A stretch of DNA of 64,000 nt, taken from positions 128,001-192,000 of IMG/VR virus record IMGVR_UViG_3300037780_000034; one strand, 5' to 3'. The notes under the pieces were generated by a model. The model searched no databases and was not told where the DNA came from. It worked only from the letters and a program-made list of their open reading frames with translations. This stretch comes from a virus. Its lineage: Duplodnaviria; Caudoviricetes. Both the position numbers and the translations under genes were made by a program. This document shows positions 8,812 to 22,476 of this stretch, one piece after another. The first letter of the stretch is position 1. The number at the start of each line of letters is the position of its first letter.

Positions 8812-8933
8812 TGCATCGTAGCTCAGAGGTAGAGCAGGTGACTGTGGATGCTAAAGGTCATAGGGTCAGTTCGATTCTGACAGCATCAACCGTAATCACT
8901 TGGTCGCAGGTTCGATCCCTGCCGATGCAGCCA
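8812..8933 (+). tRNA. tRNA-Asn(GTT) interrupted by a 47-nt tRNA-like insert (8846-8892)
   Basis: TGCATCG/CGATGCA acceptor, G73, CCA, intact D and T arms; removing the insert gives loop CT-GTT-AA. Confidence 0.8.
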
Positions 8934-9420: not shown

Positions 9421-9516
9421 AAATATGTCGGTTCCATTCAGTTGGTTTATTGAAGAACGATACTTCAATTTAGTCTAGTCGTTTAGACAATCGGCTCCAT
9501 TTTTAAACTTTTTTTT

Positions 9517-9646
9517 AGGATCATTTCCGCAATATTTTACTTTGCATCAGAAGCACGTGTTTGCAGGTTCAAGTCCTGCCTCCCCAACCATAATAATTGA
9601 CGGGGAGTAGGCAAATGGTAAAGCCGCGTTAAGTAATATGATCCTG
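9517..9646 (+). ncRNA. cassette 1 carrying a circularly permuted tRNA (CAG, Leu-like)
   Basis: AGGATCAT-TTCCGCAA ... ATGATCCT-G; 3' half 9544-9590 precedes 5' half 9601-9629. Confidence 0.85.
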
Positions 9647-10543: not shown

Positions 10544-10617
10544 GGCTCTATTGCATTGTGGAATGCAGCGGCTTCTAACCCCGTTTCAAGCAGGTTCGAC
10601 TCCTGTTAGGGCCACCA
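10544..10617 (+). tRNA. probable amber suppressor tRNA (CTA); alternative reading is a distorted Arg(TCT)
   Basis: canonical spacing puts TT-CTA-AC in the loop; C31.C39 mismatch. Confidence 0.65.
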
Positions 10618-11192: not shown

Positions 11193-11337
11193 ATATGTTG
11201 AAACTTAATTGTCAGTCTGACGTTTCAATATTAATTAATTAATGACTGGCCAAAGGCTTGATGTGTTAAAAACCTTGTGGTGATGTAATCAAGATAAACC
11301 ACATAAACTCCTTTGTATGAAATGAAATTTCCTCTTT

Positions 11338-11395
11338 AGGATGATTACCGCAAAATTAATAAACTTTTTTTTGGTAAAAGCAGAACATCATCCTG
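11338..11395 (+). ncRNA. cassette 2 with a short hairpin cargo
   Basis: AGGATGAT-TACCGCAA ... ATCATCCT-G. Confidence 0.8.
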
Positions 11396-11572: not shown

Positions 11573-11647
11573 GCGGACATCGTATAAGGTTATTACGCTT
11601 GGCGACCAGCTAAGAAATACAGGTTAGAATCCTGTTGTCCTGCTCCA
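11573..11647 (+). tRNA. atypical tRNA-Gly (ACC)
   Basis: Gly-type G1-C72, C2-G71, U73; bulged acceptor; loop CG-ACC-AG; T loop TTAGAAT. Confidence 0.65.
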
Positions 11648-12026: not shown

Positions 12027-12467
12027 ATGAGTGATTACTTCAAAAATTATATGAACTTAACAAAAGAAAACAGACAAAGACACTTAGATATATCTTCACC
12101 TTGTGAAGAACGTGGTGGGAATAGCACAATATATAGAGGAGTCCTTGCTCAATATTTAAACACTCCTATCCCGATGGGTAGGATAGCAGTTCTGGCTCAC
12201 GCATGTAACAATAATAAATGTTCTAATCCACAGCATTTATATTGGGCGACAGACAGAGAGAATATAGTAGAAGATGGAAAAAAGTTTGGAACTTTTAAGA
12301 GTGTTTGGGAACGAATGGTAGACAAGCACGGTTATGAAGAAGCTTGTAGGCTACAAGCCAACGGTGCCCAATCAAAGGCAGGACAAGGAAACAAAGGTAA
12401 ACGAAAGTCTGAAGAACATAAGCGCAAAATATCCGAATCTTTAAAAATAAAAAATAGAAAAGAATAA
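12027..12467 (+). CDS. His-Me-finger (HNH-type) homing endonuclease with NUMOD3-like tail
   Basis: HACNNNKCSNPQHL; KRKSEEHKRKISESLK. Confidence 0.8.
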   Translation: MSDYFKNYMNLTKENRQRHLDISSPCEERGGNSTIYRGVLAQYLNTPIPMGRIAVLAHACNNNKCSNPQHLYWATDRENIVEDGKKFGTFKSVWERMVDKHGYEEACRLQANGAQSKAGQGNKGKRKSEEHKRKISESLKIKNRKE

Positions 12468-12538
12468 ATCTTCTAATAATATAAATAATTATAGAAATTT
12501 GCAACCATTATACAACTACCAAAAAGGATTAAAATGTT

Positions 12539-12662
12539 AGGATCATTACCGCAATTTTATTTGCATTTCCAGCCGTAGATGCAGGTGCAATTCCTGCTCA
12601 CCCTACCAATATAAATTATGGGGTGATCGTCTAATAGTAGGACAACGTATAATATGATCCTG
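12539..12662 (+). ncRNA. cassette 4 carrying a circularly permuted tRNA (TTC, Glu-like)
   Basis: AGGATCAT-TACCGCAA ... ATGATCCT-G; 3' half 12563-12608, 5' half 12620-12647. Confidence 0.85.
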
Positions 12663-12697: not shown

Positions 12698-12816
12698 AGA
12701 TTATGTTCAGCAAACCATATAAATTATATGAAAGCCTATCAACGTTGCCGGAAGGCCCGTATGGCAAACCCAGTTTTCGATTTTCTGGTTCTATAAAAAA
12801 GTAGACACATAATCTG
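12698..12816 (+). ncRNA. cassette 5 with a multi-hairpin cargo
   Basis: AGATTATG-TTCAGCAA ... CATAATCT-G. Confidence 0.8.
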
Positions 12817-14560: not shown

Positions 14561-14568
14561 AATAATTT

Positions 14569-14653
14569 AGGAATATTTCAGCAAATTTATCTTGGATAAA
14601 ACATTGTTCTCAAAAACAAAGTGAAGTGGTTCAAATCCACATCAATATTCCTG
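14569..14653 (+). ncRNA. cassette 6 enclosing D-, anticodon- and T-like arms without an acceptor end
   Basis: AGGAATAT-TTCAGCAA ... GTGG-TTCAAAT-CCAC ... ATATTCCT-G. Confidence 0.8.
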
Positions 14654-14663
14654 ACTAATATCT

Positions 14664-14774
14664 TGGAACATTACCGCAACTATAACATAAACAATGGGTT
14701 ACAGGTTCAAATCCTGTCTTTTACAGTTTGTAAAAGTAGTTCAATGGTAGAACAATTGTCAAAAAATGTTCCAG
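14664..14774 (+). ncRNA. cassette 7 carrying a permuted tRNA-like RNA with a closed acceptor stem and no CCA
   Basis: TGGAACAT-TACCGCAA ... T arm, CTTTTACA-GTT-TGTAAAAG, D arm ... ATGTTCCA-G. Confidence 0.85.
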
Positions 14775-14782
14775 TATTTTAT

Positions 14783-16962: not shown

Positions 16963-17409
16963 ATGAAAATTGAATACCGTCAAGGCGATCTATTTAAAAC
17001 AGAGATTAAAACAATTGTTCACGGATGCAATGCGCAAGGTGTTATGGGGTCTGGGGTTGCGAATATAATTCGTGAACAATATCCAGAAGCATATGAGCGT
17101 TATCGTAATGAGTATGAAAAACATAATTATCTAAAGCTTGGTGATATCATATCAGTTCCTTGTAATTACAAGTTTATTGTAAACGCTATTACACAAGAGT
17201 ATTTTGGGCGTGACAATAAACGATATGTTAGCTATGATGCAGTAGATGACGTTATGGTAAAGTTAAATAAATTTTACGATATATACGGTATTTCAGAAAT
17301 TGCTATGCCAAAAATTGGTGCTGGTTTAGGAAATGGTTCTTGGGAAGTGATAGAAGCAATCATAGAGAATCGTCTTGACACCGTGAAACCAGTAGTGTAT
17401 ACTATGTGA
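16963..17409 (+). CDS. macro domain (ADP-ribose binding/hydrolase) protein
   Basis: GDLF, IVHGCNAQGVMGSGVA, MPKIGAGLGNG. Confidence 0.9.
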   Translation: MKIEYRQGDLFKTEIKTIVHGCNAQGVMGSGVANIIREQYPEAYERYRNEYEKHNYLKLGDIISVPCNYKFIVNAITQEYFGRDNKRYVSYDAVDDVMVKLNKFYDIYGISEIAMPKIGAGLGNGSWEVIEAIIENRLDTVKPVVYTM

Positions 17410-17561: not shown

Positions 17562-17957
17562 ATGAGCATTTCAAACCAAAAAGGTGATATAGGGGAAGCA
17601 CATTTTGTTTTAAGGGCTACTGAAAAGGGATATTGGACTGGAAAAATGCCACAAGACTGCCCTTATGATTTTGTATTGGATAGAGGAAAAGGATTAGAGC
17701 GTGTTCAGGTAAAATACAGGTCTAGTGCAAAAAAAGGTTCAATACAAATTAATTCCTTTAATTCAAGTCCGCAATCAAATAGAACATATAACGGTTTCGT
17801 TGATCAATTTGCAGTATATAACCCAGAAACATCAGAAGTATATCTTATTCCAGCTAATTTAGTAATGGAATCTGGTGCTTCTATTTTTAGAGTAGAATAT
17901 CCTAAAAATAATCAACTAAAAGGTGTAACTTTTCTTTCTGAATTCAAAGAATGGTAG
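17562..17957 (+). CDS. PD-(D/E)XK endonuclease (group I intron-associated type)
   Basis: KGDIGE, YDFVLD, RVQVKY. Confidence 0.8.
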   Translation: MSISNQKGDIGEAHFVLRATEKGYWTGKMPQDCPYDFVLDRGKGLERVQVKYRSSAKKGSIQINSFNSSPQSNRTYNGFVDQFAVYNPETSEVYLIPANLVMESGASIFRVEYPKNNQLKGVTFLSEFKEW

Positions 17958-18812: not shown

Positions 18813-19142
18813 ATGTCATATGAAAAACCACTTCCTAAACCATTATATCCGCCAGTTGACCAAGGTTCACTAAAAGCTTTTGAATATTACAAAGAATTTA
18901 TAGAATATCTTGGAGCAAAGCCGGTAAATCATACTGAAATAGAAAATGGTGATACCACAAGTTTAGAACATTTGTTATGGATGTGTAATCATTGTATACC
19001 AAGAATTCGTGATGATGGATTAGGATTTAATGTTTCTAAGTATTCACGATGGTTAGGATACATACAAGGTTGTTTAATTTGTAAAGGTTACACAAGTGTA
19101 GCACAAGAAAGAGACAGAACAAGAAACTTTTTTAATGAATAA
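18813..19142 (+). CDS. hypothetical protein
   Basis: RBS AAGGA. Confidence 0.65.
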   Translation: MSYEKPLPKPLYPPVDQGSLKAFEYYKEFIEYLGAKPVNHTEIENGDTTSLEHLLWMCNHCIPRIRDDGLGFNVSKYSRWLGYIQGCLICKGYTSVAQERDRTRNFFNE

Positions 19143-19148
19143 TCTTTT

Positions 19149-19368
19149 TGGATCAGTTCAGCAAACAATATTTCCGTGAAAAGGACCGTGACGGTGGTGC
19201 AAATCCGCCCTTCCCCGCCACAGATACACTATGACAACATAGACGGGTTAATCGCCGTAGGAACGAAGCAGTTTCCAAACCAACGATAGGAAGAGTTTGT
19301 CGTCTTCTGTAGTGTATCTTTGACGGGGAAGTAGCTCAGTTAGTAGAGCAGGTAAAAAGTTGATCCAG
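19149..19368 (+). ncRNA. cassette 8 carrying a circularly permuted tRNA-Phe(GAA)
   Basis: TGGATCAG-TTCAGCAA ... TTGATCCA-G; 3' half 19174-19220, 5' half 19325-19353. Confidence 0.85.
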
Positions 19369-19656
19369 TTAATATAATAAAGAATCGTCTAGCCATCTTA
19401 TTACAGCGTGATCCAAAACAAGTTTAGCATCTTCAACTGATATATTAAACCATTCTCCACTTATTCTTTTGTAAGATATCTCACTATGTATTTTACTTTC
19501 CATAATTCTTGTTTTTTCATCTGGAATTTCAACATAATAATGAAGATAAAGTTTATCTGGATTTCCAGTTTGTAGGTTCTTTAGCCTACGATGTGGGTCT
19601 TTTGCAAACCCAATCTTTTGACGATTTTCATTGTTACCTATAATATAAATATACAT
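19369..19656 (-). CDS. small GIY-YIG nuclease (T5orf172-like)
   Basis: YIYII...KIGFAKDPHRRLKNLQTGNP...GEWF. Confidence 0.85.
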   Translation of the reverse strand: MYIYIIGNNENRQKIGFAKDPHRRLKNLQTGNPDKLYLHYYVEIPDEKTRIMESKIHSEISYKRISGEWFNISVEDAKLVLDHAVIRWLDDSLLY

Positions 19657-20152: not shown

Positions 20153-20241
20153 AGGGGTGCGCCAACGTTGGAGTGTTGGGCTGGTCTCCAAAACCAGTGT
20201 TTGAAAAAACTTAGTGAGTTCGAATCTCATCACCTTTGCCA
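20153..20241 (+). tRNA. tRNA-Trp(CCA) with a long variable arm
   Basis: loop CT-CCA-AA; G73; 16-nt variable region. Confidence 0.85.
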
Positions 20242-21607: not shown

Positions 21608-22276
21608 TCAAGACAAAGGTAACTGGATGGAAATATAAATTTGTGATATTTCTAATTCAATTATTTTTTTTTGTTCTTCTAATTTTTTAATTTTTTTATT
21701 TATATTATCCAACTTTTTTTCTAATAATAATTTTTCTTTTTTTTTATTTTCGTTTATCTTTTTATCATATGATTTCCAAGAAACAATTCTTTTTTTAATA
21801 TATCCATTTTCAAGGTATGTTTCAATTTCTTCTGGTTTTACCTTGCAGCAGTGGCGTTCTTTTATATTGCTCATCCAAATTGTCCCATATTGACTATTGC
21901 CTTTTCCTGTTTGCGATTCGGACATTATGATACCTATATTTTTTCTTGCTCTTTCATATAGTCTTGTATTGACATATCTTTTTTGTGAGGATGATGAAGA
22001 ATACATACAAGTGAATGCTCTTACAACCTTTTTCCATCCATAACTTCCTTCATTAAGCATTTTGCAAAGCAAGTAATGACATAAAAAATGTTCACGAGCA
22101 GTGAGAAGAACAAGATTATTATTTTCGTCGGAGCCTCCGAGAGATTTTGGAATTATATGATGATTTTCGTAATAAACGTATGATTTATGCGTTGACCTTC
22201 TTTTTATTCTTCCGTTGATTTTTGCATTTTGTATTATTTTATAATATAATTTTGTATACTTATTAGTTAAAAACAT
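21608..22276 (-). CDS. HNH homing endonuclease (Mob-like)
   Basis: ENHHIIPKSLGGSD...LTAREHFLCHYLL; start MFLTNKY after RBS GAGGT. Confidence 0.85.
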   Translation of the reverse strand: MFLTNKYTKLYYKIIQNAKINGRIKRRSTHKSYVYYENHHIIPKSLGGSDENNNLVLLTAREHFLCHYLLCKMLNEGSYGWKKVVRAFTCMYSSSSSQKRYVNTRLYERARKNIGIIMSESQTGKGNSQYGTIWMSNIKERHCCKVKPEEIETYLENGYIKKRIVSWKSYDKKINENKKKEKLLLEKKLDNINKKIKKLEEQKKIIELEISQIYISIQLPLS

Positions 22277-22384
22277 ATTTACGAACCTCTTTTTTATTTT
22301 ATTTATAAAATTTATGGGTTCGCAGAATCCTTGAACACTATTGAATAGTTTGGTAATTTGGATGACGATAGAGGAACCAATAAA

Positions 22385-22476
22385 GGTCATATGACAGAGT
22401 GGTTGATTGTGCCTGATTGGAAATCAGGTGAACGTATAATAGCGTTCCATAGGTTCGAATCCTATTGTGACCGCCA
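22385..22476 (+). tRNA. tRNA-Ser(GGA)
   Basis: class II cloverleaf, G73. Confidence 0.95.

Follow-up and report, generated by a model that had tools for sequence, protein, structure and literature searches.

Permuted tRNA genes, in which the 3' half precedes the 5' half across a spacer and the rejoined halves form a standard cloverleaf, are known from Cyanidioschyzon merolae and Thermofilum pendens, where maturation runs through a bulge-helix-bulge motif, a splicing endonuclease and a circular intermediate. PMC3400036 is a review of such genes. Two-piece (permuted) tmRNA (RF04321) likewise has a permuted acceptor/T-arm module, which is processed into two base-paired pieces. The Y RNA YrlA (RF02553) combines a terminal stem, a GNCGAAN0-1G motif and a tRNA-like module ordered T arm, acceptor-like stem and D arm, and was found in 254 bacteria and 22 phages (Chen 2014, PMC4201824). 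The M. smegmatis YrlA has an "acceptor stem" of 7 bp, carries CCA and is cleaved by RNase P both in vitro and in vivo (PMC4201824). The Felix O1-type phage Bas63 encodes gp130, whose structure resembles that of Ro60 and which counters the Ppl defence; the gp130 gene is found immediately upstream of a tRNA stretch, and the authors suspect that some of these "tRNA genes" are Y RNAs (PMC11482910). A TROVE protein, reported as an RNA-repair component, occurs in some jumbo phages (PMC7824862). The reason for the tRNA-shaped module in bacterial and phage Y RNAs has been a question since 2014.

We analysed a 64,000-nt window (G000:C1:128001-192000) of a 317,722-bp IMG/VR virus record with about 30% G + C content and an estimated completeness of 85%. 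An earlier note on this DNA had described a circularly permuted tRNA-Phe(GAA), hereafter the Phe unit, and its anatomy was borne out: all coordinates check against the sequence, and the unit has the shape of a permuted, CCA-ending tRNA-Phe. The 3' half (C30 to CCA, 19174-19220) comes first, followed by a 104-nt spacer (19221-19324) and the 5' half (G1 to U29, 19325-19353). Joining 19353 to 19174 gives the anticodon stem GGTCC/GGACC, as had been read from the sequence, within a standard 76-nt tRNA-Phe(GAA) cloverleaf whose acceptor stem is 7/7 Watson-Crick. The junction of the rejoined halves reads GAGCAGGT followed by CCGTGAAAAGG, and the join may equally sit one base earlier, with T at both 19173 and 19353. 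The spacer stem described at 19222-19231/19310-19319 was also confirmed. The minimum-free-energy (MFE) fold of 19140-19380 (-70.5 kcal/mol, z = -3.7) recovered the helices of the unit, namely the closing stem, T arm, acceptor stem, spacer hairpin and D arm. A permuted-tRNA parser with a 7-pair acceptor stem, run on the whole genome, returned the Phe unit and one G-U-rich chance pairing of two adjoining ordinary tRNAs; on Markov-shuffled genomes it returned nothing in 19 of 20. The coordinates of the unit and of its sister cassettes are given in Table 1.

Table 1 Features of the permuted tRNA-Phe unit and of related cassettes in the tRNA array of the window.
Feature	Position	Strand	Basis or remark
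Handle closing stem, 5' strand TGGATCAG	19149-19156	+	Pairs with 19360-19367 (MFE fold)
Handle motif TCAGCAA (family consensus WCMGCAA)	19158-19164	+	Same motif in sister cassettes, IMG/VR arrays and phage AYO145A
Leader linker ACAATATTT, motif to 3' half	19165-19173	+	Sequence
Anticodon hairpin C30-G40 (loop GTGAAAA) and A41-C43; anticodon GAA at 19178-19180	19174-19187	+	Sequence, parse
Variable loop GTGAC and T arm GGTGG-TGCAAAT-CCGCC (G55, not U55)	19188-19209	+	Sequence, fold; C48 matches G15
Acceptor 3' strand CTTCCCC, G73, encoded CCA	19210-19220	+	7/7 Watson-Crick with 19325-19331
104-nt spacer, long branched hairpin extending the acceptor stem	19221-19324	+	Folds alone at -27.4 kcal/mol, stem 19222-19232/19309-19319
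5' half: GGGGAAG, U8 A9, D arm GCTC-AGTTAGTA-GAGC (A18, not G18), A26, G27 G28 U29	19325-19353	+	
A-rich trailer linker AAAAAG	19354-19359	+	A-rich 3' linker in nearly all handle cassettes
Handle closing stem, 3' strand TTGATCCA	19360-19367	+	MFE fold
Permuted tRNA-like cargo, loop ATCAGAA, ACCA, 10-nt spacer, break 29/30	9516-9646	+	Same handle
Short cargo alone, tRNA-Leu(CAA) 13 nt downstream	11337-11395	+	Handle
Bare anticodon-type hairpin TTTGA-CCGTTAA-TCAAA	11805-11864	+	Handle
Permuted Glu-like cargo, loop ATTTCCA with C37, ACCA, break 29/30	12538-12662	+	Same handle
Handle AGATTATGT / ACATAATCT, TCAGCAA, another structured cargo	12698-12815	+	
Cargo is a T-arm-like hairpin alone	14567-14654	+	Handle
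T arm, closed 7-bp acceptor hairpin without CCA, D arm	14664-14773	+	Same handle

The Phe unit has the GAA anticodon, a tRNA-Phe-like variable loop (GTGAC) and D arm, and the tertiary pairs G15:C48 (the Levitt pair), T54/A58 and G19/C56, and it retains U33, A37 and an encoded GCCA. It differs from standard tRNA-Phe in G73, in G32, and in A18 with G55 replacing G18 with U55; position 73 is A in 6/6 ordinary tRNA-Phe genes of related phages. The unusual G73, G55 and A18 would speak for a rearranged tRNA-Phe gene in decay, or for an assembly artefact. However, every helix is intact, the unit is identical in contigs from a second pond metagenome, with parts also in a third sample, and the same architecture occurs in unrelated phages; we regard this explanation as highly improbable. 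In a related-phage contig from another metagenome, 19173-19206 is kept with one change and the leader is different. The DNA contigs examined contained no rejoined halves. GenBank phages searched for related DNA gave tRNA-sized matches only. An exact-pattern scan of viral contigs for the T arm plus CCA gave chance matches in coding DNA only, and these were discarded. The spacer had no significant Rfam match. An RNase P site is predicted 5' of G19325, given an acceptor stem of 7 bp and the precedent of YrlA.

The sequences flanking the two halves had been taken for mere leader and trailer. Instead, they form a conserved handle made up of a closing stem, the WCMGCAA motif 1–3 nt further on and an A-rich linker ahead of the 3' strand; the same handle closes cassettes without a tRNA body and adjoins a Ro60-like gene in a Felix O1-type phage. 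At least eight cassettes of the phage's own tRNA array, the Phe unit included, are closed by it. Of the 13 stem-closed plus-strand motif sites of the record, nine fall in the 12.5-kb array; the genome-wide count of 8-bp-closed motif sites is not above that of shuffles in this AT-rich genome, and only the clustering in the array is informative. Dozens more handle cassettes were found in IMG/VR by a pattern scan with a structure filter, all in phage tRNA arrays, and their stems vary in sequence with pairing kept. In the loci searched with Rfam 15 at gathering thresholds, only tRNAs and one GOLLD RNA were named and no handle cassette; the family is not in Rfam 15 and none was found in the literature searched. 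In the Phe unit, T19148 can extend the closing stem by one G-U pair, and the TTT of the leader linker is able to pair with the AAA of the trailer. A similar leader, TTCAGCAAATAATA, is present in a unit of locus L006. The 3' closing strand abuts the stop codon of a convergent T5orf172/GIY-YIG-like ORF (19369-19656). Several cassettes end about 10 nt ahead of a tRNA gene (cassette end/tRNA start 11395/11408, 11864/11874, 12815/12824 and 14773/14783).

The cargos enclosed by the handle form a graded series. Short cassettes of about 55–65 nt enclose nothing more than a 5-bp hairpin whose 7-nt loop is of the anticodon type (for example CTTCTAA, CTTTTAA, CTGTTAA, CTGCTAA or CTGTAAA), and other cargos are a T arm alone or structured RNAs of 200–290 nt. 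The range extends from anticodon-type hairpins and T-arm-only cargos through closed-acceptor tRNA mimics without CCA to permuted tRNAs with NCCA. Since the series includes bare hairpins, the handle serves a purpose for which tRNA exons are not required. Permuted tRNA bodies could be parsed in 17 cassettes, with the break lying between 26/27 and 31/32, and at 29/30 in all three permuted units of the window. In ten of the 17, the acceptor hairpin is closed by a few bases and has no CCA; the other seven (three in the window, two in L006, one in L077 and one in L094) have NCCA directly 3' of the acceptor strand, where chance would give 1 in 64 each, plus a spacer. The CCA is clearly under selection in this subset of cargos. 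The Phe unit has a twin at L077:1725-1937, which combines an Ile-type GAT loop, ACCA and a 101-nt hairpin spacer.

The earlier note had named acceptor-stem covariation between the halves in homologues as a test, and the halves clearly do evolve together. Acceptor strands pair on average at 6.6/7 positions with their own partner, a figure that is partly circular given that the parser required at least 6, versus 3.3/7 with the partners of other units, and the stems show 4–6 pair types per position across the cargos. Between the Phe unit and the L006 unit there are three double compensatory changes in the acceptor stem. The orthology of the L006 unit is uncertain; its "anticodon" region has an alternative fold, a 7-bp stem capped by a GGAA tetraloop. 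At the Levitt pair the Phe unit has G15:C48, and most other units have A15:U48. A T-loop G55 occurs in two units only, likewise the only two without GG in the D loop, and the Glu-like cargo at 12538-12662 has, as in the Phe unit, a D loop without GG, its T loop being TGCAATT. Acceptor pairing, the Levitt pair and the co-varying A18/G55 elbow give a clear signal of structural selection on the cargo shapes. Near-orthologous closed cargos switch their "anticodon" (GAA, GGA, GTA) while the stem stays identical. Neither of the two sister permuted cargos makes a good tRNA, one having C37 and duplicating tRNA-Glu and the other having a CAG loop without a long variable arm. With roughly even odds, we regard the Phe unit as belonging to a family of small RNAs that are closed by a stem, lie in phage tRNA arrays and display tRNA parts on a shared, putatively protein-binding handle.

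The half order and the cloverleaf obtained on rejoining recall the algal and archaeal permuted tRNA genes. Unlike in those genes, the break of the Phe unit lies inside the anticodon stem, and the handle flanks recur without any tRNA. No bulge-helix-bulge was found at the junction, where the flanks form a three-way junction with the handle and no 3-nt bulges around a 4-bp helix, and a search of the genome that left out the splicing-endonuclease Pfam family returned no endonuclease candidate. The permuted intron-exon-type ligation that the earlier note had suggested found no support: the flanks contain no group I intron halves and no bulge-helix-bulge, and RtcB was not found in the genome. A group I or permuted intron-exon reading was rejected also on the ground that ORFs stop 7 nt short of the unit upstream and touch it downstream, with no Rfam intron match. 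The permuted acceptor/T-arm module is shared with two-piece tmRNA, from which the Phe unit differs in having no mRNA-like part and no pseudoknots. Identity as a permuted tmRNA was rejected on the Rfam score (11.9 bits, E = 6.3, not significant).

Several features are shared with YrlA. The 5' and 3' ends form a terminal helix whose pairing covaries across handle cassettes, a short conserved motif occupies the same position on the 5' strand, and T arm, acceptor-like stem and D arm follow in the same order with tertiary pairs including the Levitt pair kept. The earlier statement that no phage example was known was too strong, given that permuted tRNA-like YrlA RNAs had been described from 22 phages (Chen 2014, PMC4201824). 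By contrast with YrlA, the motif of the Phe unit is TCAGCAA (WCMGCAA) rather than GNCGAAN0-1G, and the unit retains its whole anticodon arm with GAA, encodes CCA and has a spacer of 104 nt. The Rfam YrlA model (gathering score 69 bits) gave no match to the Phe unit; it aligned end to end only with the sister cassette of 14664-14773 (at 14673-14778) at 31.5 bits (E = 4e-5), below the gathering score. The phage Y-RNA-like tRNA mimic with a Ro-like protein is a kind already known, and what is new is a handle RNA that has its anticodon arm complete, encodes CCA and contains a spacer of 100 nt.

A candidate protein partner of the handle was found by co-occurrence. DUF2828 scored above the Pfam cut-off in 5/5 genomes (the own genome and four complete relatives, which are related jumbo phages with many cassettes) vs 0/14 control genomes, whereas Pfam TROVE was absent from these five genomes. 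The own protein (G000:85209-86636, 475 aa) also contains DUF7788, a vWA-like domain, and its gene lies about 52 kb upstream of the array on the same strand and not adjacent to it; for YrlA, the expected place is within about 4 kb of a Ro60 (TROVE) gene on the same strand. Of the GenBank phage records, 710 contain a full-length homologue; Felix O1-type phages are among them, as are mycobacteriophages with a "Ro-like RNA binding protein" (E 1e-57 to 1e-67). In a structural neighbour cluster of the ESM Atlas, 47% of members are TROVE-annotated. A phmmer search against the PDB found nothing, and the single-sequence AlphaFold model (pLDDT 36) was uninformative. The homologue of the Felix O1-type phage AYO145A is 41% identical over its full length, and three handle cassettes lie among tRNAs 340–1140 nt downstream of this Ro-like gene, one of them carrying a closed permuted tRNA mimic. 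Bas63 is Felix O1-type as well, and its gp130 gene has the same position directly upstream of a tRNA stretch; it differs from the present case, where 52 kb separate the gene from the array, and its partner RNAs are left undefined (PMC11482910). The DUF2828/DUF7788 protein is a likely handle partner.

The genome also encodes an Rnl-type RNA ligase (PHA02142 OB fold plus RNA_ligase; G000:36658-37752), apart from the DUF2828 gene. In the four relatives, the DUF2828 gene sits between the gene of such a ligase and a 2H phosphoesterase gene. A 2H-SAK phosphoesterase was not found in the own record, RtcB was found neither in the own genome nor in the four relatives, and Tpt1 gave a sub-threshold 17-bit match only. 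That the handle cassettes serve to process or punctuate the tRNA operon, or have some other non-Ro role, with the Phe cargo incidental, would accord with the spacing of several cassettes ahead of tRNA genes and with the distance of the DUF2828 gene from the array in the own genome. Given the structurally selected cargo shapes (the 6.6/7 vs 3.3/7 acceptor pairing, the Levitt pair and the A18/G55 elbow) and a handle that adjoins a DUF2828 gene in a Felix O1-type phage, we consider it improbable.

Our main reading, to which we give a probability of about 0.5, is that the Phe unit is a Y-RNA/YrlA-like handle RNA, a mimic or two-piece RNA with a complete tRNA-Phe as its cargo, probably cut open by RNase P to give a two-piece RNA that ends in CCA. 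The cassette would be transcribed along with the plus-strand tRNA array. Its halves are predicted, from the letters alone, to fold into the tRNA L-shape through the 7/7 acceptor stem, the 5-bp composite anticodon stem, G15:C48 and the A18/G55 elbow, with the handle leaving the anticodon stem between 29 and 30 and, as the co-occurrence suggests, binding the phage's Ro60-like DUF2828/DUF7788 protein. By analogy with M. smegmatis YrlA, RNase P would cut 5' of G1 and the spacer would be trimmed to the encoded CCA. What is left would be an RNA of tRNA shape in two pieces, possibly chargeable, that the handle continues to clamp. The two-piece RNA that the earlier note had offered as an option would fit this precedent of an RNase P-cut, CCA-carrying RNA. 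The particle may act as a tRNA mimic in RNA repair or counter-defence rather than in decoding, where it could be a bait or a tether for tRNA-binding enzymes.

Several features speak against decoding, namely G73 where the 6/6 ordinary genes have A73, the G55/A18 elbow, G32 and the poor sister cargos, to which may be added the handle without a tRNA body, the many orthologous cargos that are closed and CCA-less, and the "anticodon" that varies on an identical stem. Other features weigh against a mimic: the DUF2828 gene is distant from the array, and the cargo keeps everything a real tRNA needs, including the encoded CCA, U33 and A37. The motif, which differs from GNCGAAN0-1G, and the absence of a match of the Rfam YrlA model to the Phe unit count against YrlA-likeness in particular. 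The break is also inside a helix, where removal of the handle would leave a nicked duplex, and the phage encodes an Rnl-type ligase. Nicked duplexes are a preferred substrate of Rnl2-type ligases.

The tRNA complement bears on the same question. The claim that this is the only Phe tRNA holds not just for the window but for the whole record (estimated 85% complete) by ARAGORN and the Rfam tRNA model, which give 27–28 tRNA genes, none of them for Phe. Ordinary tRNA genes cover 17 amino acids and are missing for Ala, Asn and Phe; Phe is supplied only by the permuted unit and Asn only by an interrupted gene with a 47-nt insert (8812-8930), a pattern consistent with a working tRNA. Relatives carry ordinary tRNA-Phe genes. 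Gap-filling by CCA-ending unusual tRNA-like genes (2/4) is not significant, with p estimated at about 0.1. The handle is also met in normal gene order, as an insert of about 50 nt at 28/29 of a Lys-type tRNA in locus L010.

A rival explanation is a true permuted tRNA-Phe gene whose product decodes. The handle would then be an intron-type module holding both ends together; an endonuclease would remove it, the Rnl-type ligase would seal the 29/30 nick, and RNase P and 3' trimming would remove the spacer. For it can be cited the perfect cloverleaf on joining with its encoded GCCA, U33, A37 and G15:C48, the position of the unit as sole Phe(GAA) in the record, the 29/30 break common to the three permuted window units, NCCA well above chance in the permuted cargos, the L010 insert as an arrangement from which tandem duplication could make a permuted gene, and the presence of the ligase, which in the four relatives adjoins the DUF2828 and 2H phosphoesterase genes. 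However, this route is without an endonuclease candidate (within the search described), a bulge-helix-bulge or RtcB; the handle also closes cassettes without a tRNA body; the Felix O1-type and other orthologous cargos are closed acceptor hairpins without CCA, and the near-orthologous ones vary the "anticodon" with the stem identical; G73, G55 and G32 are unusual for tRNA-Phe; and the sister Glu-like unit has C37 and duplicates an intact tRNA-Glu. We hold this explanation to be possible but rather doubtful, and the Phe unit more likely a Y-RNA-type tRNA look-alike than an ordinary tRNA gene. That the handle is a module for protein-guided splicing or repair, in which the DUF2828 protein would hold the ends, the handle would be excised and the Rnl-type ligase would seal 29/30, seems unlikely to us; the same route might serve the interrupted tRNA-Asn.

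The two pieces might also be used, once charged, on the ribosome with the handle still attached. The 7-bp acceptor stem with CCA and the RNase P and CCA precedent in YrlA are in keeping with this, as is two-piece tmRNA, whose split acceptor RNAs can be charged. However, the ribosomal P site touches the tRNA at pairs 29-41 and 30-40, just where the 9-bp arm would project from the anticodon stem's 5' strand (29/30); the weak match to the permuted tmRNA model also counts against it. We regard decoding by such a two-piece tRNA as highly improbable.

On a single handle, the phage family offers a naturally occurring gradation whose ends are a bare anticodon hairpin and a whole tRNA-Phe with its CCA, and it lies next to a Ro60-like anti-defence protein that is open to experiment (Bas63 gp130). 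Should the cargo be a mimic, this would point to a phage particle that serves as bait for host defences targeting tRNA, or in repair around them. If the cargo is instead matured, a tRNA cut-and-rejoin pathway, not known today, would exist in bacteria-infecting viruses. Were protein-guided splicing true, the phage would make its sole tRNA-Phe from a back-to-front gene; for viruses of bacteria, neither a permuted tRNA gene nor protein-dependent splicing of a tRNA is known so far. Standard tRNA finders miss handle-borne permuted genes, so tRNA counts of jumbo phages are biased.

The RNA ligase, DUF2828/DUF7788 Ro-like protein and 2H-SAK phosphoesterase genes formed a conserved trio in the related complete jumbo phage genome G002, and the same trio was found at equivalent places in G006, G007 and G008. 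The ligase has an architecture composed of a PHA02142 OB fold and an RNA_ligase domain. The trio corresponds in phages to the rsr-yrlA-rtcB repair operon of bacteria, with different enzymes.

Coordinates of tRNA-like genes, handle-bearing RNAs and protein genes.
Feature	Location	Type
RNA ligase/Ro-like/phosphoesterase trio	G002:104503-108115 (L153/L150)	
Lys-type tRNA with handle	L010:408-535	anticodon TTT
Handle-closed RNAs	L038:97-358, L044:5762-5996, L091, L107, L130, L134, L138	200-290 nt, structured
GOLLD RNA	L044:3542-4006	
Interrupted tRNA gene	window 8812-8930	54.5 bits
Suppressor-type tRNA	window 10544-10617	anticodon CTA
Degenerate tRNA-like sequence	window 11575-11640	33.4 bits
Trp-like tRNA gene	window 20153-20241	anticodon CCA
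Small inter-tRNA genes	window 16963-17409, 17562-17957, 19369-19656, 12027-12467, 21608-22390	Macro domain, PD-(D/E)XK endonuclease, T5orf172/GIY-YIG-like, HNH-type endonucleases
Cys-rich ORF	window 18813-19142	109 aa

The handle (closing stem, WCMGCAA motif and A-rich 3' linker) also occurred on other phage DNA. The Lys-type tRNA has the normal gene order; a loop-closed handle interrupts its anticodon stem between positions 28 and 29, and its locus also carries an ordinary tRNA-Lys(TTT). The same handle closes longer RNAs at seven loci, none of which matched Rfam at the gathering score; one of these loci (L044) also encodes GOLLD.

Within the window, the anticodon loop of one tRNA gene is interrupted by a 47-50-nt insert comprising a T-arm-like hairpin (GTCAG-TTCGATT-CTGAC) enclosed by the helix GATGCT/AGCATC. 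The restored anticodon varies with the cut site and would be GTT for Asn, CGT for Thr or GTG for His; the phage's set holds no Asn tRNA apart from this gene. The Trp-like gene, with a ~17-nt insert in its variable region, received no ARAGORN call, and its score of 28 bits against the Rfam tRNA model fell just under threshold; the degenerate sequence has an irregular anticodon arm (CTTGG-CGACCAG-CTAAG). The suppressor-type tRNA carries the anticodon CTA, and some of the phage's genes may use TAG as a sense codon.

Small protein genes lie among the tRNAs. The Macro domain protein could be part of NAD-dependent RNA repair, and the T5orf172/GIY-YIG-like gene directly adjoins the permuted tRNA-Phe(GAA) cassette. 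The Cys-rich ORF contains the motifs CNHC and CLIC and has no Pfam match; ten other phage contigs carry relatives of it, most of them inside tRNA arrays.
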